Notes: generated by a model not told the origin, from the sequence alone. DNA of 64,000 nt from an uncultured Chloroflexia bacterium (GCA_963755995.1 CAVWLQ010000002.1:53028-117027), one strand, 5' to 3'. Positions 12,500 through 42,214 are shown, counted from the first letter of the stretch. Translations and numbers: made by a program.

Positions 12500-12508
12500 C
12501 TCCCCGGT

Positions 12509-12541
12509 ATCATACCAGAACCTTCACGTTTACGTAAAGGT
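12509..12541 (-). promoter_or_regulatory. MerR-type palindromic operator and -10 box upstream of merR copy 1
   Basis: ACCTTCACGT-TT-ACGTAAAGGT dyad (12520-12541); TATGAT on the minus strand (12514-12509). Confidence 0.65.
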
Positions 12542-12583
12542 CATGCTCGGCGTGGGGCCGGCGCTGCCAGTCCTCGACCAGCC

Positions 12584-24708: not shown

Positions 24709-25095
24709 ATGAACCGCACGACCCCGGTCACGATCCACGCGAACCGGGCTGCCGGTCGCCTCGAGATCGGCTGGGACGACGGCCACGCCACCGTGTACGA
24801 CACGACCACGCTGCGCTGGCTGTGCCCCTGCGCGTTCTGTCGCGGCGAGGCGGGCCTGCCGGGCTGGCTGGACAGCGGCCCGACCCTGACCGAGGAGCAG
24901 ACCCGCCTGACCGACATCTCGATGGTCGGCGGCTACGCGATCGCCCCGACCTGGGCGGATGGCCACCACACCGGCTACTACACGTTCACGATGCTTCGCG
25001 ACCGCTGCCCGTGCGAGTCCTGCGCGGCCATCCGGCGGCTCGGGGCGCCCACCGTCGGATCCGCCGTCGCGGATCGCCATGAGGAGCACGCATGA
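24709..25095 (+). CDS. DUF971 / GBBH-like N-terminal domain protein
   Basis: W.DGH...LR..CPCAFC, VGGYAI..WADGH.TGYY..LR..CPCESC; TACGAT 6 nt upstream. Confidence 0.85.
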   Translation: MNRTTPVTIHANRAAGRLEIGWDDGHATVYDTTTLRWLCPCAFCRGEAGLPGWLDSGPTLTEEQTRLTDISMVGGYAIAPTWADGHHTGYYTFTMLRDRCPCESCAAIRRLGAPTVGSAVADRHEEHA

Positions 25096-25448
25096 TCGTC
25101 GTCACGACCCCCTACCTCGCCGGCAACCGCATCGTCGAGAGCAAAGGCATGGTCTTCGGGCTCGTGGTGCGCAGCCGTGGGCTGGGCGGCAACCTGATGG
25201 CCAGCATCCGCTCGCTCGGCGGTGGCGAGATCCACGAGTACACCAGCCTGCTCGAGGACACCCGCCGGCAGGCGCTCGACCGGCTCGTCCAGAACGCGAC
25301 GCTGCTCGGTGCGAACGCGGTGCTCTCGATGCGCTTCGACAGCTCGGAGCTGTCCGGCACGATGAGCGAGATCGTCGCCTACGGCACCGCGGTCATCGTC
25401 GCCCCCGACCCGGGGGGCACGGGCGGCCCGACCACTCCCGTCGAATGA
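25092..25448 (+). CDS. YbjQ / UPF0145 family protein
   Basis: GGEI.EYT.LL..R..AL.RL...A...GANAV..MRFD and EIVAYGTAV. Confidence 0.92.
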   Translation: MIVVTTPYLAGNRIVESKGMVFGLVVRSRGLGGNLMASIRSLGGGEIHEYTSLLEDTRRQALDRLVQNATLLGANAVLSMRFDSSELSGTMSEIVAYGTAVIVAPDPGGTGGPTTPVE

Positions 25449-25807
25449 CCGCCGGCCTGGGGGTCGCCCGCGTCATCGTCCTCCTGTTCGGCGTGACCAT
25501 GATGCTGGCCGGCCTGGCCACCATCGCCTTCGGCGGCGCGGCCGCCTTCATCACCGGGCTGTGGATCCTCGGCATCGGCATCGCCTGCATCGTCGGCACC
25601 CTGATCGAGCGCGTGCGCTATCGCTCGGACGCCACCGACCGGGACGGGCTGCCGACCGGGAGGGCGGGCGGCGAGCCGCCGGGGACCCGCCTCGAACCCC
25701 GCTTCCGGCGGAGCGACGAGGTCTTCGTCGACCCGACGTCGGGCCACCGGATGCGGGTCTGGCTGGACCCGGCGAATGGCGAACGGCGGTACCTGACCGA
25801 GGATTGA
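25445..25807 (+). CDS. Small membrane protein, hypothetical
   Basis: Two TM helices, ERVRY, C-terminal F..SDEVFVDP.SG..MRVWLDP..GERRY; ATGA overlap. Confidence 0.7.
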   Translation: MTAGLGVARVIVLLFGVTMMLAGLATIAFGGAAAFITGLWILGIGIACIVGTLIERVRYRSDATDRDGLPTGRAGGEPPGTRLEPRFRRSDEVFVDPTSGHRMRVWLDPANGERRYLTED

Positions 25808-25884
25808 GCACGAGGGGCGTGCTATCCTCGCCGGCCGGGCCAGACACGCGTGTCGGCCCCGTTGCGGAGGCCCAGCACCCCCCG

Positions 25885-28062
25885 ATGGCCGCGATCGATC
25901 CCGGCGCACCCGCCCGCCCTGCCGTCGCGCCACGACCCCGTCGCGCCAGCCGCCCGAAGGTCACCTTCCCGTACCTGAACCGCGAGCTGTCCTGGCTCGA
26001 GTTCAATGCCCGCGTCCTGCACGAGGCGCGCGACGAGCGCAACCCGCTGCTCGAACGGGTGAAGTTCCTGGCCATCTTCGCGGGCAACCTCGACGAGTTC
26101 TTCCAGGTGCGGGTCGCCGGCCTGCGCCAGCAGGTGGAGGCGCGCAAGGTCGCCCGCTCGCCGGACGGCCGGACCGCAGACGAGCAGCTGGCGGCGGTGC
26201 GCGAGCGCGTGCTCGGGCTCGTGGCCGACCATTCGGCGATCTTCCTGTCGGTTCGCCGGACTCTGGCCGCCGAGGGCGTGGAGCTGCTCGACTACGCCAG
26301 CATCCCGGAGCATCACGAGGCGCTCCGCCGGCGGTTCCTCGACGAGATCTTCCCCGTCCTGACGCCGCTCGCCGTCGATCCCGGCCATCCGTTCCCGTAC
26401 ATCTCGACCCTCAGCCTCTCGATCGCCGTCGGGCTGCGCGACCCGGAGACCGGCGAGCGCGGCTTCGCCCGGGTCAAGGTCCCGCAGATCCTGCCCCGTC
26501 TGCTCGAGGTCGAGCCGTCCCGCTTCGTCCTGCTCGACCAGGTCATCGAGGCCAACCTCGACGCGCTGTTCAGCGGCATGGAGGTCGAGGAGCACCACCT
26601 CTTCCGGGTCACCCGCAACGCCGACTTCGAGATCGAGGAGGACGAGGCGGACGACCTCCTCCTGGCGATCGAGGAGGAGCTTCGGCGGCGGCGCTTCGGC
26701 GCCGCGGTCCGGCTCGAGGTCGAGCGGTCGATGCCGGCCGCCACCCGAGCCCTGTTGCTGCGCGGCCTGGGGCTCGGCGAGGCCGACTGCTACGAGGTCA
26801 GCGGGATGCTCGACCTGACCGGGCTGTGGGCGATCGCCGACCTCGACCGGCCCGACCTCAAGCCCGTGCCGTGGTCGCCGGTCACCCCGCCCCGGCTGAT
26901 CCCGCCCGACGAGGACGAGCCGGCCGACGTCTTCGCGGCGATCCGGGCGGGCGACATCCTCGTCCACCATCCGTACGAGTCGTTCGCCGCGTCGACCGAG
27001 CGGTTCATCACCCAGGCCGCCAACGATCCCGACGTCCTGACCATCAAGCAGACGCTCTACCGCACCTCGGGCGACTCGCCCATCGTCCAGTCGCTGATCA
27101 GGGCCGCCGAGCGCGGCAAGCAGGTCGTCGTCCTGGTCGAGATCAAGGCCCGCTTCGACGAGGAGGCCAACATCGTCTGGGCGCGCAAGCTGGAGCGTGC
27201 CGGCGCACACGTCGTGTACGGGCTGGTCGGCCTCAAGACGCACTCGAAGACGGCCCTCGTCGTCCGACGCGAGGGGTCCGGCCTGCGGCGCTACGTCCAC
27301 ATCGGGACCGGCAACTACAACCCGAAGACGGCGCGCCTGTACGTGGACCTCGGCCTGCTGACCTGCCGGCCCGAGATCGGCGCGGACGTGACCGACCTGT
27401 TCAACAACCTGACCGGGCTCTCGCGTCAGCGGACGTTCCGCCGGCTGCTCGTCGCGCCGCACAGCCTGCGTCCGCGGTTCCTCGACCTGGTCGATCGCGA
27501 GGTCGGCCATGCGGCGTCCGGACGGCCGGCCCGGATCGTCCTCAAGCTCAACGCGATCGTCGACGTGGCCGTCATCGAGGCGCTGTATCGGGCGTCGAAC
27601 GCGGGCGTCTCGATCGACCTGATCATCCGGGGCGCCTGCTCGATCCAGCCCGGTCTGCCCGGCGTGTCCGAGAACATCCGGGTCCGCTCCATCATCGGCG
27701 AGTTCCTCGAGCATTCGCGGATCTGGAGCTTCGACAACGGCGGCGAGCGCGAGTGGTACATCGGCTCCGCGGACCTGATGGATCGCAACCTGGACCGGCG
27801 GGTGGAGGCGGTCGCCCCCGTCGAGGATTTCGACGCCCAGGTGCGGCTGGCCCAGATCATCGACGTGATGCTCGCCGACGACCGGCGCTCATGGCAGCTC
27901 AAGCCGGATGCCACCTGGGTCCGGACGGAGACCCTCGAGGGACGCGAGGGCACGATCGACACCTTCGAGGTGCTCAAGGAGGATGCATTGGCCAACGGCA
28001 GCGTCGTGACGACCCCCCACCGACCGGCCGCCGGCGCCGGCTCGCTGGACCCGCGCGCGTGA
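25885..28062 (+). CDS. ppk1: Polyphosphate kinase 1
   Basis: NRELSWLEFNARV, NLDEFFQVRVAGL, HHPYESF (phospho-His), KQTLYRTS, KARFDEE, GTGNYN, FLEHSRI, SADLMDRNLDRRVE. Confidence 0.97.
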   Translation: MAAIDPGAPARPAVAPRPRRASRPKVTFPYLNRELSWLEFNARVLHEARDERNPLLERVKFLAIFAGNLDEFFQVRVAGLRQQVEARKVARSPDGRTADEQLAAVRERVLGLVADHSAIFLSVRRTLAAEGVELLDYASIPEHHEALRRRFLDEIFPVLTPLAVDPGHPFPYISTLSLSIAVGLRDPETGERGFARVKVPQILPRLLEVEPSRFVLLDQVIEANLDALFSGMEVEEHHLFRVTRNADFEIEEDEADDLLLAIEEELRRRRFGAAVRLEVERSMPAATRALLLRGLGLGEADCYEVSGMLDLTGLWAIADLDRPDLKPVPWSPVTPPRLIPPDEDEPADVFAAIRAGDILVHHPYESFAASTERFITQAANDPDVLTIKQTLYRTSGDSPIVQSLIRAAERGKQVVVLVEIKARFDEEANIVWARKLERAGAHVVYGLVGLKTHSKTALVVRREGSGLRRYVHIGTGNYNPKTARLYVDLGLLTCRPEIGADVTDLFNNLTGLSRQRTFRRLLVAPHSLRPRFLDLVDREVGHAASGRPARIVLKLNAIVDVAVIEALYRASNAGVSIDLIIRGACSIQPGLPGVSENIRVRSIIGEFLEHSRIWSFDNGGEREWYIGSADLMDRNLDRRVEAVAPVEDFDAQVRLAQIIDVMLADDRRSWQLKPDATWVRTETLEGREGTIDTFEVLKEDALANGSVVTTPHRPAAGAGSLDPRA

Positions 28063-29843
28063 GCGCAGCCGTCGAGCGCCCCGTCGAGGTCGAGCTCAAG
28101 TACCGGGTCGTCGACCTCGCCGTCGCCGAGCGCTACCTGGTGGCCGAGGAGATCGGCTCATTCAGCGGCACCGCCGCGCCGCGCTCGTCGCAGCTCGAGG
28201 ACCGCTACGTCGACACTGCGGACGGGGCGATGACCCGGGCCGGGTTCGCCGTCCGGTTGCGGCGCTCGGGAAAGGGCACGATCGTGTCGGTCAAGTCTCT
28301 CGCCCGGACGGACGGTCCGGGTGGCTCGGTCCGGCGCGAAGAGCTCGAAGGTCCGGCAGACCGGACGGCCGGGCCGCTCGACTGGCCCGCGTCGGACGCC
28401 CGCTCGCTCGTCCTCGAGCTGGCCGGCGACGCACCGCTGGTGGAGCTCGTGACCATCCGGCAGCTGCGACGCAAGCGGGTCGTCCGCGACGGCGACACGC
28501 GGGTCGAGCTGAGCCTCGACGAGGTCGACGTCGTGTCGCGCTCCCGCGTCGTCGACCGGTTCGTGGAGCTCGAGGCGGAGCTGGTCCGCGGCGCCGAGGA
28601 GCGGCTGACCTCCCTGGCCGACGTCTTCGCCGCGGATCATGCCCTGGCGCCCGCCAGCGGCAGCAAGTTCGAGGCGGCGATGGAAGCGGTCCGAACGGGC
28701 TCGCGCCGGCGCCGCGGTGGATCCGCCGCCGGGGCGGAGGACGAGGTCGCCGAGCAGCCCGACGACGCCGAAGACCGCGAGACCGAGGCCGAGGCCACGT
28801 CCGCCGAGCCCGCGTCCGCCGAGCACGAGCCGATCGGCGCCGTCGCGACCACGTCCGACGTCGTCGACGAGGCGATCGAGGAGGCGACGAGCCAGGACGC
28901 GCGCCTCGTTGTCGGTCGGAACCCCGGGGTGACCGCCGACGACCACGTGGCCGAGGCCGGCCGCAAGGTCATGCGCTTCCACCTCGCCCGGATGCTCGCC
29001 CGTGAGGCCGGCACCCGCGAGGGGTCGGACCCCGAGGATCTCCACGCGATGCGCGTCGCCACCCGCCGCCAGCGCGCCGCCTGGCGCGTCTTCGGGGCGT
29101 CGTTCCGGCCGGCCCGCACGAAGCGCTACCGCAATGGCCTGCGCGAGATCGCGTCACGGCTCGGTGCGGTTCGCGACCTCGACGTGCTGCTCGAGGCGGC
29201 CGACCTGTACCGGGCGGACCTGCCGGTCAGCGAGCAGCGCGCGATCGAGCCGCTCCTGTCCGACTGGCGCGAGCACCGTGACGACGCGCGCGTCCTGCTC
29301 ATCCGCGAGCTGGACTCGGACGGCTACCGGCGGTGGGTCGACGACTACCGCGATTTCGTCCGGACCGAGGGCGCTGCGGTGGTCCCGGTCCTGCCGACCC
29401 AGCCGCACCGGGTCCGAGACACCGCCGGTTCCCGGATCTGGACCGCCTACGAGCAGATGCGCGGCTACGAGCCCGTCCTGCGCTGGGCGGACGTCGAGAC
29501 GCTCCACGAGCTGCGGATCGCCGGCAAGTGGCTGCGCTACACGCTCGAGTTCGTGCGCGAGGCGCTCGGCGATGACGCGGCGCCGCTGATCGCCCGCGTG
29601 ACCGCCCTTCAGGACCACCTGGGCCTGATGAACGACGCGGACGTGTCGGCGTCGATGGCCCGGACGTTCCTCGTCGAGCACGCGGGCGACCTGTCCGGTC
29701 TCGAGAGCGCGGCCATCGGGCGCTACCTGATCAGCCGCGAGCGCGAGGTCGCCCGGTTGCGGCGGAGCATCGGGGCACCGTGGCGCGGCGTGGCCGGTGT
29801 CACGTTCCGGCGGACGCTCGGGCGGGTCGTCGCCAAGCTGTAA
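28059..29843 (+). CDS. CYTH (triphosphate tunnel) plus CHAD domain protein with acidic linker
   Basis: EVELKY (ExExK) and ELEAEL in CYTH; LHAMRVATRRQR, LGAVRDLDV, LHELRIAGKWLRY, LQDHLGLMND in CHAD; GTGA overlap with ppk1. Confidence 0.92.
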   Translation: MSAAVERPVEVELKYRVVDLAVAERYLVAEEIGSFSGTAAPRSSQLEDRYVDTADGAMTRAGFAVRLRRSGKGTIVSVKSLARTDGPGGSVRREELEGPADRTAGPLDWPASDARSLVLELAGDAPLVELVTIRQLRRKRVVRDGDTRVELSLDEVDVVSRSRVVDRFVELEAELVRGAEERLTSLADVFAADHALAPASGSKFEAAMEAVRTGSRRRRGGSAAGAEDEVAEQPDDAEDRETEAEATSAEPASAEHEPIGAVATTSDVVDEAIEEATSQDARLVVGRNPGVTADDHVAEAGRKVMRFHLARMLAREAGTREGSDPEDLHAMRVATRRQRAAWRVFGASFRPARTKRYRNGLREIASRLGAVRDLDVLLEAADLYRADLPVSEQRAIEPLLSDWREHRDDARVLLIRELDSDGYRRWVDDYRDFVRTEGAAVVPVLPTQPHRVRDTAGSRIWTAYEQMRGYEPVLRWADVETLHELRIAGKWLRYTLEFVREALGDDAAPLIARVTALQDHLGLMNDADVSASMARTFLVEHAGDLSGLESAAIGRYLISREREVARLRRSIGAPWRGVAGVTFRRTLGRVVAKL

Positions 29844-29858: not shown

Positions 29859-30791
29859 CTAGGCTCGCCAGCCGTGGGCCAGGTCCACGAGGCTGTCCCG
29901 CCACGCCGGGCCGGCATGATCAACGGCGAGGATCGCGCCCTCCCGGACGCCGGCCTCCGAGACGCGGAGCCGATCCGCGCCGTACGTCTCGAGGATCGCG
30001 TCCACGATCGCCGCGCCGGCCGGCAGGATCCGGGCGCGGATGGGATTGATCAGGTGCCGTTCGGACGCGATCGCCGCCGGCTCGGCGGCGAGGATCGCCA
30101 GCACCTCCGCGATCCGCTCGCGCGTGAGGGTTCGATCGAGCATCGCGGCAGGGAGCACCTTGAGCAGGTTCGACGCGGTGCCACCGACCGCGACGATCTC
30201 GCTGGGGTGGGCCGCCGGGGCGCCGGCGATGACCTCGCGGGCCGCGGCATGCATCGCGGCGACCTCGGCGGGCGTCGCCGGATCGTGCGTGACGAACCGG
30301 TCGCTGAGTCGGGCGGACCCAAGCTGGAGACCCGTCGCTCGCGGACGGTGGGTCGGGTCGACGATGCAGAACTCGCAGCTGCCGCCGCCGACGTCGATCA
30401 CGAGGGTCTCCTGGGTGACCGGCATGCCCTCGGTGACGCCGATGATGGTCAGGTACGCCTCCTCGGCATGAGTCAGGACGTGGACCGGCGCCCCGGCCGC
30501 GGCGAACACCTCCCGGACGACCGCGGCCGCGTCGGCGGCCCGGCGGATCGGCTCGGTGCCGAGGAACGTGATGCCGGTCGCGCCGAGGCGAGCGGCCGTG
30601 TCCGCGTATCGGACGAGAACGGCCGTCAGCTCGCCGCGGCGGGCACGACCCAGGTAGCCGCGCTCGTCGACGGCCGTGCCGAGACCGAGGAAGACCGACT
30701 CGTCGACCAGCGGCTGGAGCCGGTGGCCGGCGACGACGGCGGCAACGAGATGGACCGAGTTGGACCCGATGTCGACCGCCGCGCCGACCAC
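29859..30791 (-). CDS. ppx: Ppx/GppA exopolyphosphatase, short form without HD domain
   Basis: DIGSNSVHL, TEPIRRA, EEAYL, DVGGGSCE, GGTASNL, GVREG. Start uncertain (GTG chosen). Confidence 0.85.
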   Translation of the reverse strand: MVGAAVDIGSNSVHLVAAVVAGHRLQPLVDESVFLGLGTAVDERGYLGRARRGELTAVLVRYADTAARLGATGITFLGTEPIRRAADAAAVVREVFAAAGAPVHVLTHAEEAYLTIIGVTEGMPVTQETLVIDVGGGSCEFCIVDPTHRPRATGLQLGSARLSDRFVTHDPATPAEVAAMHAAAREVIAGAPAAHPSEIVAVGGTASNLLKVLPAAMLDRTLTRERIAEVLAILAAEPAAIASERHLINPIRARILPAGAAIVDAILETYGADRLRVSEAGVREGAILAVDHAGPAWRDSLVDLAHGWRA

Positions 30792-30840
30792 GGGGCCGGG
30801 CGTGAGGGACGGGTCGACGGTCGCCTGGGTCGTGATGTCG

Positions 30841-31974
30841 TCAGGAGGGGGCGTCGTCGGGACCAGCGGAGGCCGGACGAAGGGACCTCCGCGCTGGCGA
30901 TCGGGTCGTGGATCGAGGGGTGGCCGGCTTGCTGGTCGGCGTCTTGGGCTTGGCGGCGGTCGATGCCGGCTTCCCGGCGGCCGGCGCCCGCTTGGCCGTC
31001 GACCGCGTGCGGGTCGCTGCGGGCTTGCGGGTCGTGGCAGGTTTGGCGGCCGCCTTCGCCGGCGTCCCGGTCGTTGCGGGCTTGGTGGTCGCTGTCCTGG
31101 CGGTCGGGGGCTTCGCGGCAGAGGCAGGCTTGCGAGCGGTGGTGGTCCGTCGTGCGGGGGCCGGCTTCGCGGATGCGACGGGCGTCGAGGGTGTGGTCCC
31201 TGCAGGCGTCCTGGCGGGGGCCGCTGCCGTCGTCGTCGCGACTGCTGCCGGCGTGGCGGCGGTCGCCGCGGTTGCGGGTGTCGCCGCGGTCGTCGGCTTC
31301 GCCGCGGTCGCCGGCTTCGCGGCGGTCGTCCGCTTCGCGGGTGACGTCGGCTTCCGGGCAGTCGCCGGCTTGCGCGGCGACGCAGATGCCGGGGCCTTCG
31401 ACGCGGCCGATGCTGGCGTCGCGGCCGTTGGAGCCGCGGTCGCGGCCCTCGAAGCGGCAGGTGCACGCCGGGTCGTCGCCGGCTTCCGCGTGCTCGCGGA
31501 TCGAGTCGCTCGCGCGGCGGTCGCCCGTTTCGTCCGCCGCGTCGTGGCTCGCGGGGTGGTGGCCCGCGGGGTGGTGGCGCGCGGCGCCGGCGCGGGCGCA
31601 GGTGCCAACGTCGCGGTCGCAGTCGGCGGTGCAGCCGTGACCGCGGCCGATCCGGCTGCCTCGGCTGCGGCCCGTTGCAGCTTGGCCGCCAGCGACGAGA
31701 CCTCCTTGGCCGCCTCGGTGGCCTGACGCGTTCGCTTCCCGACCTGCTTGCGGCCCTTGGTCGCCTCGGCTGCCTGCAATTGCCGGAGACGCTTCGCCTC
31801 GGTCTTGCGCGCGGCAGCGAGCTTCTTCTCGAGCTTGTGCAGCTCCTTCGCCGTGCGACCGGACACCGGGGTCACGGTGCCGTCGGCGTCGACGATGACA
31901 TCGGTGACGGTCTCGACGCCGCCCCCGCGCGGTCCTTCGGCCCGTTTCGACGGCTTGTCGCCTCGCTTGGCCAT
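30841..31974 (-). CDS. Basic Lys/Arg/Ala/Pro/Thr-rich low-complexity protein (histone H1/AlgP-like tail after a coiled coil)
   Basis: GGAGG RBS; N-terminal helical/coiled-coil region, then repeats RATTP x3, AAKPAT, RKPA; lies in an operon between the metallophosphoesterase and ppx. Confidence 0.7.
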   Translation of the reverse strand: MAKRGDKPSKRAEGPRGGGVETVTDVIVDADGTVTPVSGRTAKELHKLEKKLAAARKTEAKRLRQLQAAEATKGRKQVGKRTRQATEAAKEVSSLAAKLQRAAAEAAGSAAVTAAPPTATATLAPAPAPAPRATTPRATTPRATTRRTKRATAARATRSASTRKPATTRRAPAASRAATAAPTAATPASAASKAPASASPRKPATARKPTSPAKRTTAAKPATAAKPTTAATPATAATAATPAAVATTTAAAPARTPAGTTPSTPVASAKPAPARRTTTARKPASAAKPPTARTATTKPATTGTPAKAAAKPATTRKPAATRTRSTAKRAPAAGKPASTAAKPKTPTSKPATPRSTTRSPARRSLRPASAGPDDAPS

Positions 31975-31990
31975 GCGGATCGACCTCCGT

Positions 31991-32866
31991 TCAGCGGCGC
32001 GCGATGCGCGCACCCTCGTAGAGCAGCGTGGGCCGGCCGGTCGACACGGACCGTCGCCAGATCGCAAGTCTGCCATGTTCGTCGAGGATCTCGAGATAGC
32101 TGGCGTCACGCCGTCCGTCGTTGACGAGCGCCCCGGCGCTGGCGATGACGACCGTCCCGCGGCCGTCGGACAGCTGCCAGGCGTTGGCCCGGTGGATGTG
32201 GCCGTGGAGGGCGAGGTCCACCTCGAGGTCGGTCAGGAGGGCCAGCACGTCGCCCGAGCGATGGGTCAGGTCACCGTCGCGGAGCTTCCGGCCCGGGACC
32301 GGCAACAGGCCGTGGTGCAGCGCGAAGATCCGCAGCGCCCCCGGCCGGGCGCGGCGCAGCTCCCGAGCAGCGCGCTCCAGCGATTCGGACCGGAGCCGCG
32401 GCGTCGAGTTGACCGCGACGACGTGGACGTCGGTGCCCCGATGCCCACCGGCGAGACTCCCGAACCGCGCGATCCAGGCCTCCTCCGGGTCGTCGCCACT
32501 GGAGGCGTCACCGTCCCCGATCTCGCGTCCCGTCTCGTCGAACCCGAGCGTCAGCGCGGGCTCGAGCGCCAGGAAATAGTCGAGATCCGAATCGACCGGC
32601 AACGGTCGCGCGTCGCCGGGTGGTCCGACCGACCGCTCGAGGTCGCGATTGCCGGGGATGACGACGCGCGGGATCGAGCCGAAGCGCGCCAGCTCGGCCG
32701 CGACCTCGTCGAGCTCGGACGGACGGCCGTCGGCCGACAGGTCGCCGGTGACGACGACGAGGTCGGGCGCGCGTGCGAGAGCCGAGTCCACGAGCGAGCG
32801 CAGGGCGCGCCGCAGCTCGGGCGAGCCATCGAAGTGGAAGTCGGAGAGGTGGACGATCCGGGTCAT
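31991..32866 (-). CDS. Calcineurin-like metallophosphoesterase
   Basis: SDFH, TGDL, PGNRD, LHH, HGHIH metal-binding motifs. Confidence 0.88.
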   Translation of the reverse strand: MTRIVHLSDFHFDGSPELRRALRSLVDSALARAPDLVVVTGDLSADGRPSELDEVAAELARFGSIPRVVIPGNRDLERSVGPPGDARPLPVDSDLDYFLALEPALTLGFDETGREIGDGDASSGDDPEEAWIARFGSLAGGHRGTDVHVVAVNSTPRLRSESLERAARELRRARPGALRIFALHHGLLPVPGRKLRDGDLTHRSGDVLALLTDLEVDLALHGHIHRANAWQLSDGRGTVVIASAGALVNDGRRDASYLEILDEHGRLAIWRRSVSTGRPTLLYEGARIARR

Positions 32867-33573
32867 GCGGACACCGGCTGGCCGGCTCGCCCACCCGGCC
32901 GTGCGTCGGCGCGCGCGGCCAGGACCGAATCCGCCGCCCGGAGCACGCGCTGGCCGACCTGCTCGATCGGGTCGGCTGCGCGGATGCGGGTGAAGCCACC
33001 GGGACCCGCATACCGGTCGAAACAGGCGTAGAGGCGCCCGGCGAACAGCCGGTAGCTCTCGCGCAGGTCTGCCGACAGCCCGACGTCGAGACCTGCCTCG
33101 TACGGATCCGGATCGTCGACGTGTCGGGCCAGGGACGCCTCGGCGTCGACGTCGAGGAACAGCACGGCGTCCGGCGCCGGCACGAACGCGAACAGGGCAT
33201 CGAGCCAGGCGCCGTCCACGCCGCGGGCCTCGGCTCGCGCCATCGGGGTCCAGCAGTACCGGTCGGCGAGCACGACGAGACCGGCGCGCAGGGCGGGCAT
33301 GACCACCTGCTCGACGCGCTCGGCCAGGTCCGCGGCGTAGAGGAGCGCCGTCTCGGTCGGGTCCGCCTCGCGATCGCGTTTCGCGCGTCGGATCCGATCC
33401 CCGCTCAGGAGCGAGCTTGCGAGCGACGTCCGGGCGACGCCCCGACCGGCATAGCGCAGGTGTTCGTCGAGGCGTCGGAGATGGGTCGAGCGGCCCGACC
33501 GGTCGATCCCCTCGAGGACGAACAGCACACCGGGCTGGCCGTGGGCGCCGGGCCGGGCAGACGGCGTCGTCAT
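32863..33573 (-). CDS. Thymidylate-kinase-like P-loop protein (B)
   Basis: EGIDRSGRST P-loop variant, LLYAAD, VLADRY, PDAVLFLDV, YEAGLD.GLS motif. Confidence 0.8.
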   Translation of the reverse strand: MTTPSARPGAHGQPGVLFVLEGIDRSGRSTHLRRLDEHLRYAGRGVARTSLASSLLSGDRIRRAKRDREADPTETALLYAADLAERVEQVVMPALRAGLVVLADRYCWTPMARAEARGVDGAWLDALFAFVPAPDAVLFLDVDAEASLARHVDDPDPYEAGLDVGLSADLRESYRLFAGRLYACFDRYAGPGGFTRIRAADPIEQVGQRVLRAADSVLAARADARPGGRAGQPVSA

Positions 33574-33578
33574 GGTCC

Positions 33579-34262
33579 TCACCGGCCGGCGGGCATCCGC
33601 GGCGTCCCCGGCCGCCTCGGGCCCCCGGAACGGCCGACGGTCGGCGCGGTCAGCATCGGCCGGATGGCCTCTCGGATCGTGGCGACGCGGACACCGGGAT
33701 CGGTCCGTGGATCGATGACGAGGGCGTCCACCGGCCACGGCTCGGTCGCCCCATCCTCCAGCAATCCCTCGTAGGCGGCCATCAGGCGTTCCAGGAACGC
33801 GGCATAGGCCAGCGCCACTGCCTCGCCGCGGGCGGCGGACGGTCGCGTCGCGATCGCGCGGGCCAAGGCGGCCGCCGGTTCCTGGCGATGGAACAGAACG
33901 AGGTCCGGGCGCGGCGCGAACCGGTACAGGGACGCGATCCAGGCCGGGTCGAGGCCGCGCGCCACCTCGCGGGCAACGGCGGTCCAGACATAGCGGTCGG
34001 CCAGCACGACGTCGCCGCGGGCCAGCGGCCGCTCGATCTCCACCGCGATCCGGCGAGCGGCCTCCGACGCAGCCAGCAGGGCCGCGACCCGGGGCGTGAG
34101 AGCCTGCCGTCCACCCGGCATGCCGGCGGCGCGGGCCACCACGCGCGAGGGTCGCCATGTCACCAGGTGGACGCGGCGACCCTTCCGCTCCAGCCACCGC
34201 GCGACGCCGTCGAGACCGGCCGACTTGCCGGATCCATCCAGGCCCTCGGCCGCGATCAACAC
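33579..34262 (-). CDS. Thymidylate-kinase-like P-loop protein (A)
   Basis: AEGLDGSGKS P-loop, VLADRYVWT..AR..ARG, PDLVL. Confidence 0.8.
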   Translation of the reverse strand: MLIAAEGLDGSGKSAGLDGVARWLERKGRRVHLVTWRPSRVVARAAGMPGGRQALTPRVAALLAASEAARRIAVEIERPLARGDVVLADRYVWTAVAREVARGLDPAWIASLYRFAPRPDLVLFHRQEPAAALARAIATRPSAARGEAVALAYAAFLERLMAAYEGLLEDGATEPWPVDALVIDPRTDPGVRVATIREAIRPMLTAPTVGRSGGPRRPGTPRMPAGR

Positions 34263-34372: not shown

Positions 34373-34744
34373 ATGCCGCTGATCCTCATCGGCCTCGGCG
34401 GCTTCGCCGGCGCGATCTCGCGCTACCTCGTCGACGGCTTCGTCGTCGAGCGCACGGGGGCGGCGTTCCCGTGGGGCACCCTGGTGGTGAACCTCACCGG
34501 CTCGTTCGTGCTCGGCCTGCTGTTCGCCCTCACCGCCGAGCGGGCCATCCTGCCGGCGGACATCCGCGGTCCCGTGATGGTCGGCTTCATCGGCGCCTAC
34601 ACGACGTTCTCGACCTACATGCTCGAATCGTGGGCCCTCCTCGAAGGCGGCTCGTGGGCGCCGGCCCTGGCGAACCTCGGCGGCTCGGTGATCCTCGGCC
34701 TGGTGGCCGTCGCGGCCGGCCTGGCGGTGGGCCGGGCGCTCTGA
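34373..34744 (+). CDS. crcB: Fluoride channel Fluc/CrcB
   Basis: GGFAGAISRY, FPWGTLVVNLTGSF, GFIGAYTTFST; TATCCT 6 nt upstream of the ATG. Confidence 0.93.
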   Translation: MPLILIGLGGFAGAISRYLVDGFVVERTGAAFPWGTLVVNLTGSFVLGLLFALTAERAILPADIRGPVMVGFIGAYTTFSTYMLESWALLEGGSWAPALANLGGSVILGLVAVAAGLAVGRAL

Positions 34745-34802: not shown

Positions 34803-34894
34803 GACGGGCCGCGATGGTGTCCTCGTCAAGTGAAAGGAACCGCAATGTCCCAGAACCGCCGTGCCCCAGCGGCGGCCACGAGGAGGATCATCGA

Positions 34895-36073
34895 GTGATC
34901 ACGACCCCCAGGCGCCTCGGTGCGCTCACGCTGATCGCGGCAATCGGCCTGAGCGCCTGCTCGAGCAGCGCCGCCTCGACGTCGCCCGCCGCGTCAGTCG
35001 CGGCCCCGACCACGGCGACCAGCCTGGCGCCCTCGACCGGCGACGCATCGGCCGGCCCGAGCATGGCGGCAGCACCGGTGCCGCCGTCGGCCTCGATCAC
35101 GCTCCAGGGCGCGGGCGCCACCTTCCCGGCACCGCTCTACGACAGCTGGTTCCAGGCATTCAACGGCGTCTACCCGAACGTCCAGATCGACTACCAGGCC
35201 AACGGCTCGGGGGCGGGCATCAAGGCCATCACAGAGGGGACCGTCGACTTCGGCGCTTCCGACGCAGCGATGAAGGACGAGGAGATCGCGGCCCTGCCAT
35301 CCGGCGCCAAGATGCTCCACTTTCCCACCGCCCTTGGCGCGGTGGTGATGATCTACAACCTGCCGGACACGCCCAAGCTCCAGCTCGACTCGGCCAACAT
35401 CGCCGGGATCTACCTGGGCACGATCAAGAAGTGGAACGACCCCGCCATCGCGGCCAATAACGCGGGCGTGACACTGCCTGACCTGGACATCCTCGTCGTC
35501 CACCGCTCGGACGGCTCGGGGACGACCAACGCCTTCACGACCTACCTCGACACGGTCGACCCCACCTGGCACTCGACCGTGGGCAAGGGCAAGGAGGTCA
35601 AGTGGCCCACAGGTATCGGCGCGGCCGGAAACGACGGCGTCGCGACCGCGGTCAAGCAGACGCCGGGCGCGGTCGGATACGTCGAGCTGAACTATGCATC
35701 GGCCACGAAGCTGACTTCTGCCTACGTCAAGAATGCGGACGGGGCCTTCGTGCCCGGCTCGACCGACGGTGTCACGGCCGCTGCCGAGGCAGCCCTCGCG
35801 GACTTCCCCGCCGACTTCCGCCAGGCCCCGATCATCAACGGCGCCGGTGCGGACACCTACCCGATCGCCTCGTACACGTACCTGCTCGTCTACCAGGATC
35901 AGGCGAACGCGGACAAGGGCCAGACGCTCGTCTCGTTCTTGTACTGGGCGCTGACCGACGGTCAGGCGACGGAAGCCTCGCTGGGGTACGCGCCTCTACC
36001 CAAGGAAGTCCAGGAGAAGGCGCTGACCGAGCTCCACCTCGTCACGACCGGCGGCTCGCCGATCTGGCCCTGA
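34895..36073 (+). CDS. pstS: Phosphate ABC transporter substrate-binding lipoprotein
   Basis: AGGAGG RBS; lipobox LSAC; GAGATFPAPLY, GSGAGI, DFGASD, HRSDGSGTT, YPIASYTY. Confidence 0.96.
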   Translation: MITTPRRLGALTLIAAIGLSACSSSAASTSPAASVAAPTTATSLAPSTGDASAGPSMAAAPVPPSASITLQGAGATFPAPLYDSWFQAFNGVYPNVQIDYQANGSGAGIKAITEGTVDFGASDAAMKDEEIAALPSGAKMLHFPTALGAVVMIYNLPDTPKLQLDSANIAGIYLGTIKKWNDPAIAANNAGVTLPDLDILVVHRSDGSGTTNAFTTYLDTVDPTWHSTVGKGKEVKWPTGIGAAGNDGVATAVKQTPGAVGYVELNYASATKLTSAYVKNADGAFVPGSTDGVTAAAEAALADFPADFRQAPIINGAGADTYPIASYTYLLVYQDQANADKGQTLVSFLYWALTDGQATEASLGYAPLPKEVQEKALTELHLVTTGGSPIWP

Positions 36074-36185: not shown

Positions 36186-37139
36186 ATGACCCATTTGACG
36201 CTCGTCGCGCGCTCTCGCCAGGGGACCGGGCAGCTGGCGGATCGCGCCTTCCGCGGCTCGACCCGGTTCGCGGCGGGGACGGTCGGCGCGCTCCTGATCC
36301 TGATCGCGCTGCTTCTGATCTGGAACTCCCGTCTGACCTGGCAGACCTTCGGCCTGGCCTTCATCACCGGCGAGGTGTGGGATCCGGTCGCGGGCATCTA
36401 CGGGGCACTGCCGTTCATCGTCGGCACCGTCCTCTCGTCGCTCCTGGCGATCGCCATCGCGGCCCCCATCGGCATCTTCACCGCGATCTACCTCTCGGAG
36501 CTGGCGCCGGGTCGGGTGGCCACGCCGCTGACCTTCATGATCGAGCTGCTTGCCGCGATCCCGAGCGTCGTCATCGGCCTGTGGGGCGTCTTCATCCTGG
36601 CCCCCTTCCTGCGCGGAACGGTCGAGGCGTGGATCGTGTCGGTCTTCGGCTGGATCCCGTTCCTGGGTGGTCCGACCTACGGCATCGGCCTGTTCAGCGC
36701 AGGAGTGATCCTCACGATCATGGTCCTGCCGACCGTCGTCACCATCTCGCGCGAGGTCATCCAGGCGGTCCCAGGCTCGCAACGTGAGGCGATGTTCGCG
36801 CTCGGCGCGACACGTTGGGAGACGATCCGGCGGGCGGTGGTCCCGTATGCGAGGTCGGGAATCATCGGGGCGGTCATCCTCGGGCTTGGCCGGGCGCTCG
36901 GCGAGACGATGGCGGTGACGATGATCATCGGCAACAAGGACGCGATCCCGACCTCGTTGTTCGACCAGACCCAGACGATCGCCTCGAAGATCGCCACGAC
37001 CTTCAACGAGGCGCCGGCCGGGCTGCCGACCTCCAGCCTGATCGCCCTGGGGCTGATCCTGCTGGTCGTGACCGTGATCATGAACGTGGTCGCCCGCCTG
37101 CTCGTGTGGCGGGTCGCCGGTCCCGTGGGAGGCGACTGA
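36186..37139 (+). CDS. pstC: Phosphate ABC transporter permease
   Basis: [34 protein letters not shown]. Confidence 0.95.
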
Positions 37140-38020
37140 TGGCCGCCGCGAACCCGGCCCTGGTCAGCCGCCTCACCGCGACCGGCTCACACGGCCGCCG
37201 GCTGTGGGTCGACCGCGGCATGCGCACGGTGGCGCTCCTGGCGGCGCTGGCCTGCGTCATCCCGCTCGCCGCAGTGCTCATCTTCGTGACCATCAACGGC
37301 CTGGCCGCCCTCAACCTGGACCTGCTGACCAAGCCGTCGCGAGCCCAGGGCATCGGCGGTGGCGCATACGGGGCAATCCTCGGCACGATCCAGATGGTCG
37401 GCCTCGCCACGCTCATCGCGATCCCCTTCGGCGTCCTGGCCGGGATCTACGTCAACGAGTTCAGCTCGCAGCGCGCCGCCCGCGGCGTACGGTTCGCGGC
37501 GGACGTCCTCGTCGGGGTGCCGTCGATCCTGATCGGGATCTTCGTCTATACATTCCTCGTCCAGCCGTTCAAGCAGTACAACGCGTTCGCCGGCAGCGTC
37601 GCCCTGGCCGTGATCATGGTGCCGGTCATCATGCGCACGACCGAGGAGATCCTGAAGCTCGTCCCCGGCTCGCTCCGCGAGGCCTCCCTGGCGCTCGGGA
37701 TCCCGACCTGGCGGACCGTCCTGTCCGTCGCCGTCCGGACGGGGCTGCCCGGCATCCTGACCGGGATCATGCTCGCCGTCGCCCGGGCGGCCGGCGAGAC
37801 CGCGCCGCTGCTGTTCACGGCCCTCGGCAGCCGGCTCGTGAACGTCGGCGACTTCTCGAAGCCGATGGATGCCCTGCCCTTGTTCATCTTCGTCAACGCC
37901 CGGCAGCCGTACGAGCTGCAGAACCAGCAGGCCTGGGGTGCGGCGTTCCTGCTCTTGCTGTTCGTCCTCGTCGTCAACGTCCTCGTCCGCTTCCGGACCG
38001 CGGGACAGCGAGCCCGATGA
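37139..38020 (+). CDS. pstA: Phosphate ABC transporter permease
   Basis: [29 protein letters not shown]; TGATG overlap. Confidence 0.95.
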
Positions 38021-38937
38021 AGGAGCCCGATCCCGTGACCACCCAGCTGCGCGACCCATCTCCCAGGCCACCGGAGACGAAGGCCGACCCTTCGCCCGTG
38101 CAGGCCATGGCAGCGACCCGGACGGATGCGTCGGCGGCGCTATCGACCGGTACGGTCGAGCAAGCCTCGGGCCGGATCGACATCGACGGGCTGCACGTCT
38201 ACTACGGCGCCTTTCGAGCTGTGCGGGACATTTCTCTGACCGTCCAGCCGCATGCGATCACGGCGATCATCGGACCGTCCGGTTGCGGCAAGTCGACGTT
38301 CCTGCGAACCCTCAACCGGATGCACGAGCTGACTCCCGAGACGCGCGTCGAGGGATCCGTTCGGCTGGACGGCGAGGACATCTATGGCTCGGCGATCGAC
38401 CCGGTGGCACTGCGGCGGGTCGTCGGCATGGTCTTCCAACGGCCCAACCCGTTTCCCACGATGTCGATCTACGACAACGTCATCGCCGGGCTCCGGCTGA
38501 CCGGCCGGCCGAAGACTTCCACCTATGACGAAGTGGTCGAGCGATGTCTCCGTCGGGCCGCGCTGTGGGACGAGGTCAAGGACAAGCTCCGCCAGGGCGG
38601 CACGTCGCTGTCGGGTGGCCAGCAGCAGCGACTGTGCATCGCGCGGGCCCTCGCAGTCGACCCCGAGGTCATCCTGATGGACGAGCCGGCGTCCGCGCTG
38701 GACCCGGTCGCCACGCTCCGGATCGAGGAGCTGATGGCCGAGCTGCGCTCGAACTACACCATCGTGATCGTCACTCACAACATGCAGCAGGCCTCGCGGA
38801 TCAGCGACTACACGGCGTTCTTCACGATGGGTCCGGACCGGGCGGGCTACCTGGTCGAGATGGACCAGACCGTCCAGATCTTCACCAACCCGAGCCAGCA
38901 GCTGACCGAGGACTACGTCTCCGGCCGGTTCGGTTGA
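38017..38937 (+). CDS. pstB: Phosphate ABC transporter ATPase
   Basis: [47 protein letters not shown]-terminus. Confidence 0.96.
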
Positions 38938-38950: not shown

Positions 38951-39721
38951 ATGACCGACGACCATCTGACGGGAGATACGATGATGGACGCCCAGATCGA
39001 GGCGCTGATGACCGATTCCCGCAACACCGAGGCGCATCCGGACCTGTCGCGGCCGGGTGGCTCGGCTCCCCGCGAGGCGCTGGACCGCGAAGAGCAGTTG
39101 ATCCGCGACTCCGTGCTCAGGATGGGCGCCCTCGTCGAGGCGGCGATCCGGGAGGCGTCCCGAGCCCTGGTCGCGCACGACCCGGCGCTCGCGCTGGACG
39201 TCATCAAGGGTGACGCGATCATCAACGAGGCCCAGCGAGGAGTCTCGCGTCTGATCGCGGTCACCATCGCAACTCAGCAACCGGTGGCGCGCGACCTGCG
39301 CTACCTCCTCACCCTGGACCATGTGACGTACGAGCTGGAACGGATGGGCGACCACGCGGCATCGGTCGCCAAGGCGGCGATCAAGCTGGCTCCTGAGCCG
39401 CCACTCGAACACCACATCCACCTGCCCGAGATGGCAGAGCGTTCGGCGGTCCTCGTCCACGGCGTCCTGAGGGCACTGATCGAATCGGACGCGATCAAGG
39501 CCCGTGAGATCGCGGTCGAGGACGACGAGATCGACCGGCTCTACCACGCCACCTTCGACGAGGTCGTGGAGTTGATGCGTCAGGACCCGGCCAATGTGGA
39601 GCGCGGCACCCGGATCATCATCGCCTCGCACTACCTGGAGCGGATCGGCGACCGGGCGACGAACATCGCCGAGGACGTCGTCTACCTCGTGACGGGAGAC
39701 GTCGAAGACCTCAACCCGTGA
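38951..39721 (+). CDS. phoU: Phosphate signalling/transport regulator
   Basis: QQPVARDLR, ELERMGDHA, LERIGDRATNIAE duplicated motifs. Confidence 0.95.
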   Translation: MTDDHLTGDTMMDAQIEALMTDSRNTEAHPDLSRPGGSAPREALDREEQLIRDSVLRMGALVEAAIREASRALVAHDPALALDVIKGDAIINEAQRGVSRLIAVTIATQQPVARDLRYLLTLDHVTYELERMGDHAASVAKAAIKLAPEPPLEHHIHLPEMAERSAVLVHGVLRALIESDAIKAREIAVEDDEIDRLYHATFDEVVELMRQDPANVERGTRIIIASHYLERIGDRATNIAEDVVYLVTGDVEDLNP

Positions 39722-39783
39722 CCGGGCCGGCGGGTGGCCGGGGCAGGCCCGCTCGCGCGTCGAACCGCTACCCTAGCGGGGTC

Positions 39784-40269
39784 GTGACCGATCTCTCGTT
39801 CCTCCGCCATGCGCACGCCGGCGACCGCCTCACCTGGCAAGGCCCCGACGAGAACCGGCCGCTCTCGGACAAGGGCGAGCGCCAGGCCGAGCGCCTGGGA
39901 GCGTTCCTTGCCGGCGTCAAGTTCTCGCCGGACGTCTTCATCACGTCGCCCAAGGTCCGTGCGGCGCGCACCGCGGAGATCGTCGCCGGCCACCTGGGCA
40001 CGCCCGTCACGGTCGACGACCGGCTCGCCAGCCCTTTCGACCTCCCGACCCTCGAGCGGATCCTTGTCGACGCCGGTGATCCCGCCCGGCCCGTGATCGT
40101 CGGTCACGACCCCGACTTCAGCGAGCTCCTCGCGCTCCTGTCGGGCACCGCGGACCTGCCGATGCGCAAGGGCGCGTTCGCGCTGGTCGATGTCGAGCGC
40201 CCGCTGTCCGCCGGCGCCGGAACGCTCCGCTGGCTGGTCCCGCCTGACCTGCTGAAACCCGAGCGCTGA
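39784..40269 (+). CDS. sixA: SixA-like histidine phosphatase
   Basis: LRHAHA, RPLSDKG, TSPKVRA..TA, VGHDP, LRWLVPP. Alternative start at GTG 39718. Confidence 0.85.
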   Translation: MTDLSFLRHAHAGDRLTWQGPDENRPLSDKGERQAERLGAFLAGVKFSPDVFITSPKVRAARTAEIVAGHLGTPVTVDDRLASPFDLPTLERILVDAGDPARPVIVGHDPDFSELLALLSGTADLPMRKGAFALVDVERPLSAGAGTLRWLVPPDLLKPER

Positions 40270-40280: not shown

Positions 40281-40922
40281 CTACTCGGCCGGGTCGAGCG
40301 GACCGCCGCGCAGGGACCGGTACGCGAGCGTCCCGAGGGCCGCCCCGAGGATCGGCGCCGCGATGTAGATCCAGAGATGCGCGAAGTCGCCTGAGATGAT
40401 CGCCGGCCCGATCGAGCGAGCCGGGTTCATCGATGCGCCGCTGATCGGACCGCCGACGAGGGCACCGAGGGCCACCGTGCCGCCGATCGCGAGCGCGGCC
40501 GCCTGCCCGACGGCCCGGATGTCCGTCGCCACGGCCGTGATCACCAGCATCAGGACGAACGTCAGGACGACCTCCCAGGCGAAGGACTGCAGGTCGGACC
40601 CGGTCGGCTGGGTGACGCCCAGGTCGGCGTCCGGCCCGAGCGTCGCGCGCAGGGCGAGCGCCGCGATGGTGGCTCCCAGGATCTGGGCGGCCGCGTACGC
40701 GGCGACCCTGGACCAGGGCAGGTGCCGCCCGATCGCGAAGGCGATCGAGACCGCCGGATTGAAGTGGGCGCCGGAGATGTGGCCGAAGGTGTACACCATC
40801 ACCGCGACGACCAGGCCGAAGGCGAGCGCGACCGATGTCGGAGGGAGCCCGTTCGCGATCGCGCCGCAACCGAAGAAGACGAGCGCGAAGGTGCCCAGGA
40901 ACTCGGCGGCGACAGCCCTCAA
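40281..40922 (-). CDS. MIP-family aquaporin/aquaglyceroporin (AqpS-like arsenite channel by context)
   Basis: AEFLGTF, SGAHFNPAVS, SMNPARSIGP; TTG start overlapping the ArsC stop. Confidence 0.92.
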   Translation of the reverse strand: MRAVAAEFLGTFALVFFGCGAIANGLPPTSVALAFGLVVAVMVYTFGHISGAHFNPAVSIAFAIGRHLPWSRVAAYAAAQILGATIAALALRATLGPDADLGVTQPTGSDLQSFAWEVVLTFVLMLVITAVATDIRAVGQAAALAIGGTVALGALVGGPISGASMNPARSIGPAIISGDFAHLWIYIAAPILGAALGTLAYRSLRGGPLDPAE

Positions 40923-41752: not shown

Positions 41753-41760
41753 GCGTCGCG

Positions 41761-41791
41761 ATCGTAGACCTTCGAGTCGCTCGAAGGTCAA
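41761..41791 (-). promoter_or_regulatory. MerR-type promoter with 19-bp spacer and dyad operator
   Basis: Minus strand TTGACC-N19-TACGAT with the perfect dyad GACCTTCGAG-TCG-CTCGAAGGTC (41767-41789). Confidence 0.8.
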
Positions 41792-42135: not shown

Positions 42136-42142
42136 GCGCTCA

Positions 42143-42182
42143 CTGTATTGACAAATATCTATCTTGACAAGTATCAATACAG
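42143..42182. promoter_or_regulatory. Divergent arsR/arsM promoter with ArsR-type inverted repeat
   Basis: AT-rich island with CTGTATTGA...TCAATACAG arms and two TTGACA hexamers. Confidence 0.7.
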
Positions 42183-42214
42183 CGACCACGGCCCGCCAGC
42201 ACCCGAGGAGCACG

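Follow-up and report, generated by a model that had tools for sequence, protein, structure and literature searches.

What two adjacent genes resembling dTMP kinases do in the company of a metallophosphoesterase (MPE), a histone-like protein and an exopolyphosphatase is the question raised by a locus in an uncultured Chloroflexia bacterium (GCA_963755995.1). The window, meaning the whole 64,000-nucleotide stretch of DNA that was analysed (CAVWLQ010000002.1:53028-117027), carries these five genes on the minus strand at 29859-34262, ending in ppx and facing ppk1 and a CYTH-CHAD fusion gene. The original prediction was that the members without an obvious role could form an undescribed polyphosphate (polyP) module. 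From profile scores and structural models, the kinase-like pair is very probably a member of the PPK3 family, and the whole operon is predicted to act in polyP turnover in this soil Chloroflexota genome with a probability of about 75%. The word 'undescribed' could not be kept, since the pair corresponds to the published PPK3 and its neighbourhood is already reported in the text of the PPK3 paper (PMC12995831).

PPK3 is a heteromeric polyphosphate kinase whose two subunits are both exapted paralogs of dTMP kinase (Hofmann et al., J Biol Chem 2026, PMC12995831; preprint 10.1101/2024.08.28.610084). According to the text of that paper, Saci_2019 is the catalytic subunit (cPPK3) in Sulfolobus acidocaldarius, Saci_2020 (rPPK3) is inactive but activating, and the two form an alpha2beta2 complex. 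The reaction of this enzyme (SaPPK3) is reversible, with ADP + polyP -> ATP favoured, and the genes lie in an operon sixA-ppx-cPPK3-rPPK3-CHAD. The Sulfolobus PPK3 proteins have no dTMP kinase activity, and S. tokodaii ST1543 (STK_15430; 2plr/5h70) is named as a cPPK3 homolog. Relatives of PPK3, mostly bacterial dTMP-kinase paralogs, adjoin PPX, SixA, CHAD, Nudix and PstS/C genes (PMC12995831).

The first gene of the operon (33579..34262, minus strand, 227 aa) matches Pfam PF02223 Thymidylate_kin with 62-63 bits, and the second (32863..33573, minus strand, 236 aa) with 77-78 bits. The Walker A motif of the first is GSGKSA, and that of the second is GIDRSGRST, with Arg for Lys; DRY is intact in both. 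They are referred to here as the K-type and the R-type. Both fall below the NCBI dTMP-kinase equivalog cut-off of 83.25 bits (K-type 60.3, R-type 79), and a canonical tmk with a PF02223 score of 150 bits is present on another contig of the same genome (G000:C4:228376-228942). The K-type profile matched the ST1543 chains (PDB 2plr/5h70) with 268 bits, against 79 for the best true thymidylate kinases (TMKs), and the R-type profile matched the same chains with 219 bits, against 84. The AlphaFold2 model of the R-type (pLDDT 88.7) returned ST1543 chains as all eight of its best Foldseek hits (TM 0.85-0.88). In both paralogs the stretch after DRY reads [IVC][YFW]T..A+..RG, whereas the genome's own Tmk has FADSTLAYQG; judged by this stretch, the dTMP-binding residues are not conserved in the pair. 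No Pfam PPK2 match was obtained for either protein at E <= 0.01.

In a tree inferred by maximum likelihood from 23 K-types, 24 R-types and the Tmk of the window's genome, the K-types lie on one side of a branch with support of 80/84, and the K/R labels can be explained with 2 changes, the lowest number possible. The sequences of the window's clade are on long branches, and their exact placement is unsure. The profile scores, the Foldseek matches of the R-type and the tree are the reasons for filing the pair under PPK3. By alignment, the K-type is the predicted counterpart of catalytic cPPK3 and the R-type that of the second subunit, rPPK3; by analogy with Sulfolobus, the two would form a heteromer. 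Seven arginines are invariant in the K-type alignment and four in that of the R-type, which agrees with the statement in the text of the PPK3 paper that a basic cleft is found only in cPPK3. The same text says that rPPK3 lacks the DRX arginine (PMC12995831). This loss was not found here: the R-types of all 78 pairs examined keep the arginine, as DRY, DRW or NRY. The change at the Walker-A position is not found in the PPK3 texts for rPPK3, although the supplement (Tables S2/S3, Figs S15-S19) may show it. By sequence comparison, there thus seems to be more than one way in which the second subunit of PPK3 became altered.

The locus shares several features with that of S. acidocaldarius. In both, adjacent dTMP-kinase paralogs occur with ppx, a canonical tmk is separate, and SixA, CHAD and pst genes are close by; the active site is intact in one subunit and altered in the other, and the nearest solved structure for both window subunits is that of the S. 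tokodaii cPPK3 homolog. The two systems differ in that the window's second subunit retains the DRX arginine and carries a Walker-A Arg, in that the MPE and histone-like genes stand between the kinase genes and ppx, and in that CHAD is fused to CYTH in a convergent ppk1 operon. The host is also different, being a Chloroflexota bacterium that additionally encodes PPK1 and two PPK2 proteins. The text of the PPK3 paper describes the family as occurring in 'a few bacteria', with most carriers having neither PPK1 nor PPK2, and proposes that one kinase replaced the other in situ (PMC12995831). The texts of paper and preprint make no mention of a metallophosphoesterase, a histone-like protein or Chloroflexota. 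What is already known is therefore that the pair is PPK3 and that ppx, sixA, CHAD and pst genes lie near it; the MPE-linked subtype, the cassette described below, the Arg-P-loop subunit, an AlgP-like gene with ppx and the adjacency of PPK3 and PPK1 were not found in those texts. A division of labour of a similar kind is seen in the two-domain class II PPK2 that the PPK3 paper discusses (for example P. aeruginosa PA3455), in which an active P-loop kinase module is combined with a degenerate oligomerisation/activation module, but the modules in the window are separate polypeptides and belong to the dTMP-kinase lineage.

Relatives of the pair were collected by scanning one genome per species with aligned relatives of the downstream gene, which gave 80 loci. 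The nearest of these are labelled Chloroflexia, Chloroflexota or Limnocylindrales, and others are labelled Melainabacteria, Acidobacteriota, Verrucomicrobia, Nitrospirae, Binatia and more. Tandem TMK-like genes are present in 77 of the 80, the exceptions being two contig-cut loci and one single gene. With the window counted, the upstream member has the Walker-A Lys in 77 of 78 pairs and the downstream member has Arg at that position in all 78; the DRX arginine is retained in both members. Within the fetched flanks, ppx is nearby at 55/80 loci and a SixA-like gene at 53/80; among loci labelled Acidobacteriota, ppx is nearby in 41 of 45. Conservation of the neighbourhood, which the original prediction had named as a check, was therefore borne out for the tandem pair in several phyla, with ppx and SixA-like genes accompanying it in the numbers just given. 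Pfam searches of nine loci, including acidobacterial, Nitrospiraceae and Binataceae ones, identified Ppx-GppA, His_Phos_1, CHAD, PstS and ROK kinase genes beside the pair. The ppk1 gene is within the fetched flanks at only three of the 80 loci, all in the window's clade.

A search of a protein library for relatives at E <= 1e-30 gave 673 representatives of clusters at 50% identity. Among the best 150 of these 673, the Walker position in P-loop-like motifs is R in 57, K in 64 and C in 4, and one K-type has DQY. The cysteine (G.GC[ST]T) was seen in PPK3-family proteins P0160, P0169, P0222 and P0256. Fusion proteins were drawn from library proteins P0127-P0262. They include TMK-TMK (P0127, P0137, P0149), TMK-TMK-Ppx domain III/HD (P0128, P0135, P0141), Nudix-TMK (four proteins), SPX-TMK-DUF2252 (P0196) and MFS-TMK-APH/DUF2252 (five proteins), and an inorganic-pyrophosphatase-TMK arrangement occurs in the very long polyvalent-type proteins P0186, P0219 and P0225. 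No fusion to an MPE was present among the 26 long PPK3-like library proteins scanned.

The third gene of the operon (31991..32866, minus strand, 291 aa) encodes the calcineurin-like MPE (Pfam PF00149 Metallophos, 62 bits) with motifs DxH, GD, GNRD, HH and GHxH. D9/H11, D42, N73/D75, H184/H185 and H223/H225 are invariant in 24 aligned orthologs. The histidine of GNH[DE] is replaced by Arg (GNRD) in all 24, and the metal ligands are all kept. The AlphaFold2 model (pLDDT 79) has a disordered acidic loop at residues 80-123, and its Foldseek neighbours are YydD, Lmo2642, Rv0805, GpdQ and purple acid phosphatases, with matches to Rv0805, GpdQ and Lmo2642 at E 1e-11 to 1e-13. As modelled, the protein has a phosphodiesterase/phosphatase fold that offers no pointer to a specific substrate. 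The yeast endopolyphosphatases Ppn1 and Ppn2 belong to the metallophosphatase superfamily and provide a precedent for this fold cutting polyP. The window MPE resembles them in having a calcineurin-like metallophosphoesterase fold in a polyP-metabolising context; it differs in that its nearest folds are the bacterial class-III phosphodiesterases (Rv0805, Lmo2642), GpdQ and YydD, and in the His-to-Arg change in GNHD. The enzyme may act hydrolytically on polyP or on a phosphoanhydride that the kinase forms or takes as a primer; that polyP itself is the substrate is a tentative idea, and rather doubtful.

The MPE was sought in a sample of 401 Chloroflexota genomes, 322 of them high-quality. Orthologs (E <= 1e-10) are present in only four: the window's own genome (G000), G261 of the same genus, and G241 and G281, which belong to another family than the window's genus. 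A metagenome scan with the MPE alignment added 29 contigs with an ortholog; they fall into two groups, one of 57-83% identity and the other of 33-36%. Contigs with at least ~700 bp upstream of the MPE were taken as informative. A PPK3 gene is directly upstream of the MPE in 8/8 of these in group 1 and 14/15 in group 2, or 22/23 in total; the one miss is L151, and the contigs counted include the near-duplicates L141/L142, L147/L148 and L149/L150. PPK3 is likewise directly upstream in L004-L007, G261 and G241, and in the 51 contigs where the MPE relatives are all weaker it is never found directly upstream. Genome G281 has the MPE without a nearby pair. Genome G241 has TMK-TMK-MPE and, on a different contig, a second, standard PPK3 pair. 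The R-type P-loops of the two kinds are distinguishable, being EGID[RL]SGR[ST]T when MPE-linked and EG[TAS]DG[SV]GRST when standard. The MPE is thus a dedicated partner of this PPK3 subtype.

In group 1, ppx follows the MPE in all 8 contigs with downstream sequence. The gene after the MPE in group 2 (L123:475-1533 P0121, L122:1622-2332 P0122, L135-L153) encodes a protein with a long acidic Glu/Ala/Gln-rich tail and a coiled-coil-like N-terminal motif, approximately KKLxKRExRxQERLQEAQxAxAKAxERFxRAEARLQKR. A DUF2851 gene follows it in G241 and G281.

Comparison within the window's genus showed how the operon is put together. Genomes G333 and G124, which are 91% and 94% complete (the window's genome is 72.6% complete), have neither the TMK-like pair nor the MPE. 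Their corresponding site reads sixA-phoU-pstBACS(-crcB), histone-like gene-ppx and CYTH-CHAD-ppk1. All five genes face CYTH-CHAD-ppk1 in G261, and likewise in L004, L005 and L007; the ppk1-CYTH/CHAD pair itself is kept in G261, G333, G124 and G151. Since G333 and G124 keep the histone-like gene and ppx at the site without TMK-TMK-MPE, these two genes make up the resident unit; the three genes cPPK3-rPPK3-MPE, placed before them, behave as a presence/absence cassette. The original claim that the role-less genes make up a polyP module was therefore upheld in part: the PPK3 pair and the conserved polyP neighbourhood support it, but the five-gene unit is a composite. When the intergenic DNA next to crcB was aligned between the window and G124, no similarity was seen past the crcB start, and so insertion and deletion of the cassette are not separable.

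The families of polyphosphate kinase were also compared over the phylum sample. The window's genome holds ppk1, two PPK2 genes, PPK3 and a second Ppx/GppA gene. A PPK3-type pair was found in 78 of the 401 genomes (62 of the 322 high-quality ones) and PPK1 in 197 of the 401, a tally that takes in G272, G038 and G344 (flagged unpublished), none of which carries PPK3. In a cross-tabulation made by hand, PPK1 is also present in 22 of the 78 PPK3 carriers versus 175 of the 323 other genomes, in agreement with the statement in the text of the PPK3 paper that the 'majority encode neither'. Co-occurrence of PPK3 and PPK1 is concentrated in one family, where 15 of 16 carriers have both, and in the window's genus. 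The pair is near-universal in some families (22/25 and 5/5), and PPK1 there is found in 0/25 and 0/5.

The fourth gene (30841..31974, minus strand, 377 aa) encodes the histone-H1/AlgP-like protein, which has no Pfam or NCBIfam family and a pI of 12. A conserved N-terminal part of ~125 aa, rich in K/R/E/A, is followed by a 252-aa tail composed of A32/T21/P16/R12/K8 % with KPA/AKP repeats, in which K+R number 49 and D+E 2. Tandem repeats with a period of 18 nt lie inside the gene at 31263-31379. Orthologs adjoin ppx in L004-L007, G261, G333 and G124, and share an N-terminal consensus of approximately ...KEL+xLEK+LAAAR.TE.KRL.QL...GRKQVAKR.RQ...; their basic tails vary in repeat, from KPAAA in L007 to TTKRSTTKAA in G333. 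The N-terminal part belongs to a tiny, lineage-specific family, of which 4 relatives were found. Homology to the coiled-coil protein that follows the MPE in group 2 was considered and rejected: a group-2 hidden Markov model (HMM) had no match in 1971 open reading frames (ORFs) at E <= 10, and hhalign gave a probability of 31% for the window N-terminal part against the group-2 protein, leaving the two as positional analogues only.

The architecture recalls that of P. aeruginosa AlgP, a protein with a net charge of +55 in which a helical N-terminal domain of 124 aa precedes a disordered KPAA-repeat tail; AlgP localises to polyP granules, and their even spacing depends on it, as described in the text of the AlgP report (PMC9239181). 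The two proteins are alike in the ~125-aa N-terminal part, the long basic Ala/Pro/Lys-rich repeat tail and a net charge of the same order, and the L007 ortholog has plain KPAAA. The window tail differs in being richer in Thr and Arg, and its N-terminal family is confined to the 4 relatives mentioned. Its gene is also placed in a ppx operon; to our knowledge, algP is not in an operon with ppx. By this analogy the protein may bind polyP and/or DNA, and AlgP-like architecture is likewise the basis on which a role in granule scaffolding might be suggested.

The fifth gene, ppx (29859..~30791, minus strand), encodes a short two-domain Ppx/GppA exopolyphosphatase (Pfam PF02541 Ppx-GppA, 132 bits) that covers profile positions 1-279 of 285 and is without domain III/HD; its TIGR03706 exopolyphosphatase score of 195 bits is below the curated cut-off of 307. 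Its start is uncertain, the GTG at 30791 being the earliest start past the upstream stop codon. At a G+C content of 68-76%, plain ORF lists for the window are noisy with false frames, and the genes were delimited with a third-position GC frame plot, which showed five successive coding segments on the minus strand at 29859-34262. The K-type stop is 5 nt from the R-type start, the R-type and MPE genes overlap by 4 nt, and gaps of 16 nt and ~49 nt separate the MPE from the histone-like gene and the latter from the probable GTG start of ppx. A terminator scan placed no site between the five genes on their strand (2 sites versus 0.8 expected). A sigma-70 promoter scan returned 0 sites; in a Chloroflexota genome of 72% G+C, both scans are uninformative. 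Rfam had no match in the window. The five genes are predicted to form one operon and to be co-transcribed.

On the opposite strand, ppx converges with the CYTH-CHAD fusion gene (28059..29843; CHAD 172 bits, CYTH 46.5 bits), and their stops are 15 nt apart. The start of the fusion gene overlaps the stop of ppk1 (25561..28062 as an ORF; PP_kinase_N, PP_kinase, PP_kinase_C_1 and PP_kinase_C, 128-248 bits), of which the true start is probably ~25900, where the third-position GC frame becomes coding. At the other end of the operon, crcB, a fluoride channel gene (34373..34744, plus strand; CRCB 93 bits), is divergent across a gap of ~110 bp. It is followed on the plus strand by pstS (34814-36073; PBP_like_2), pstC (36186-37139; BPD_transp_1), pstA (~37140-38020; BPD_transp_1), pstB (~38044-38937; ABC_tran), phoU (38951-39721; PhoU) and a gene for a SixA-like histidine phosphatase (39718-40269; His_Phos_1), whose TIGR00249 sixA score of 55 bits is below the cut-off of 74.5. 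The frame plot, Pfam matches and intergenic gaps therefore agree with the layout originally described, both for the five co-oriented, tightly spaced genes ending in ppx opposite ppk1 and CYTH-CHAD and for pstSCAB-phoU-sixA just beyond; only crcB, between the operon and pstS, had been omitted.

A few other features of the window were recorded. A YbjQ-family gene at 25092-25448, upstream of ppk1, is kept beside ppk1 in G124 and G151. The SixA-like gene is followed by genes for a MIP-family channel (40281-40922, minus strand), an ArsR-type regulator (41788-42255, minus strand), an S-adenosylmethionine (SAM) methyltransferase (42164-43054, plus strand) and a GNAT acetyltransferase (43054-43485, plus strand); together, 40281-43485 resembles an arsenic-type detoxification cluster adjoining the phosphate transporter. 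Two adjacent same-strand ORFs at 50094-50711 and 50758-51255 match profile positions 1-137 and 174-254, respectively, of the periplasmic binding protein family PF13407, and precede an ABC permease and ATPase; a gene that is split or frameshifted, or else an assembly error, would account for them. Two tandem MerR-regulator/MFS-transporter pairs occupy 9171-14412 on the minus strand, and the first MFS ORF (944 aa) appears to consist of two MFS halves or a duplication.

The enzymatic activities of all the locus proteins are predicted from sequence, and the following scheme for polyP turnover is proposed on that footing. PPK1 would build long-chain polyP from ATP, and CYTH-CHAD would bind it and trim short chains. 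PPK3, consisting of a K-type and an R-type subunit, would equilibrate polyP with ADP/ATP, acting by analogy with SaPPK3 mainly in ATP regeneration at low energy charge; the R-type would be a non-catalytic, oligomerising subunit. The MPE may cut polyP or remove a phosphoanhydride by-product or primer, the basic histone-like protein may coat or tether polyP, and Ppx would free phosphate from the chain ends. The pst-phoU-sixA operon would supply and sense phosphate and so tie the locus to phosphate supply.

Several observations weigh against this scheme. The pair occurs without a nearby ppx in 10/10 loci labelled Melainabacteria and in 7/8 loci of Verrucomicrobia type. The group-2 cassette is also found away from ppx, with 0 ppx matches in 19 loci, and the tail of the protein following its MPE is acidic instead of basic. 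The structural neighbours of the MPE are generic phosphodiesterases and phosphatases, with no known polyphosphatase among them. As the R-type retains the arginine that published rPPK3 is said to lack, its lesion (Walker Lys to Arg) is a different one, and a 'regulatory, inactive' status for it is an inference. The presence of PPK1 and two PPK2 proteins means that PPK3 is not needed to fill a gap in this genome. The remaining points concern the K-type, which is the fastest-evolving enzyme of the operon: its identity to the L007, L127 and L128 orthologs is 47-49%, compared with 59-61% for the R-type, 61-65% for Ppx, 68-69% for the MPE and 80-82% for PPK1. Its tree branch is long, and a deletion next to the LID leaves it 9 residues shorter there than other K-types. 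All 4 K-types of the sister sub-clade (L007:7025-8725, L126, L127, L128) have lost the Walker Lys and read GAGT.. or GAGM.., although the ORF, DRY, R-type, MPE and ppx are kept. With an Arg-type partner, neither subunit in that sub-clade has a canonical P-loop lysine, and the canonical kinase activity of the subtype is consequently not assured.

These features of the K-type count in favour of a different explanation, in which the pair is no longer a kinase here and instead serves as a non-catalytic or differently catalytic module that binds polyP or nucleotide and steers the MPE, and perhaps Ppx, with hydrolysis by the MPE being the real work. The redundancy with PPK1 and PPK2 would fit such a role. 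So would the MPE-linked R-types of both groups, whose derived P-loop, EGID[RL]SGR, has lost the usual Gly, unlike the standard pairs of G241 and G281. Nevertheless, the window K-type still has GSGKS, DRY and, in the LID, the invariant arginines R135 and R140, the group-2 K-types retain GSGKST, and no other family comes nearly as close to either subunit as the cPPK3 structure does. This explanation is accordingly considered unlikely, and a working PPK3 kinase is preferred for the window.

Chance juxtaposition was also weighed, that is, a mobile TMK-TMK-MPE cassette with another role, such as in the nucleotide pool or in phage defence, that lies upstream of an unrelated histone-like/ppx operon. 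Within one genus, some genomes indeed have the cassette and others do not, and the group-2 cassettes are distant from ppx. The MPE weakly matches the NCBIfam 'anti-phage phosphoesterase' (54 bits versus a cut-off of 420), and both TMK-like proteins weakly match the PADLOC candidate PDC-M51B (20-28 bits). All of these defence matches are, however, far below their cut-offs, and a defence role based on them was rejected. Linkage of the PPK3 family to ppx, sixA and CHAD extends across phyla, ppx follows the MPE in every contig of the window's group that has downstream sequence, and PPK3-like domains are fused to Ppx domain III/HD, Nudix, SPX and pyrophosphatase. Chance is therefore a very improbable explanation of the arrangement. 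Least credible of all is that the TMK-like genes encode ordinary redundant (d)NMP kinases: their relatives are auto-annotated 'dTMP kinase' and Pfam Thymidylate_kin is above its cut-off, but the genome has a canonical 150-bit tmk elsewhere, both paralogs are below the equivalog cut-off and differ from canonical TMK after DRY, and the Sulfolobus orthologs are without dTMP kinase activity according to the text of the PPK3 paper (PMC12995831).

Polyphosphate turnover with PPK3 as a kinase thus remains the preferred explanation of the operon. A more specific proposal combines several of the observations above: cPPK3-rPPK3-MPE may be a self-contained, horizontally mobile polyP cassette representing a new PPK3 subtype, in which the GNRD-type MPE would be a kinase-coupled polyphosphatase or phosphoanhydride hydrolase and the Arg-P-loop subunit would be more than a scaffold. 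The subtype coexists with standard PPK3 in G241 and with PPK1 and PPK2 in the window's genome, which under this proposal implies a role distinct from bulk polyP synthesis. If the proposal were correct, the Arg-P-loop subunit would have to handle nucleotide or polyP where the K-type has lost the Walker Lys. This combined proposal is speculative and is put forward as a possibility that is less likely than its alternatives taken together.

The locus enlarges the picture of PPK3, a family whose definition rests on a single archaeal enzyme and which has been portrayed as rare among bacteria. In some bacterial phyla PPK3 is common, as indicated by its presence in 78/401 Chloroflexota genomes and by the 673 clusters of relatives at 50% identity and E <= 1e-30. 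The usual change in the second subunit is Walker-A Lys->Arg, not loss of the DRX arginine, and one PPK3 subtype travels with a dedicated phosphoesterase. The occurrence of an AlgP-like gene with ppx is a second, independent genetic hint tying histone-H1-like tails to polyP biology. Finally, the position of PPK3 beside PPK1 may represent an intermediate state of the proposed in situ replacement of one polyphosphate kinase by another.

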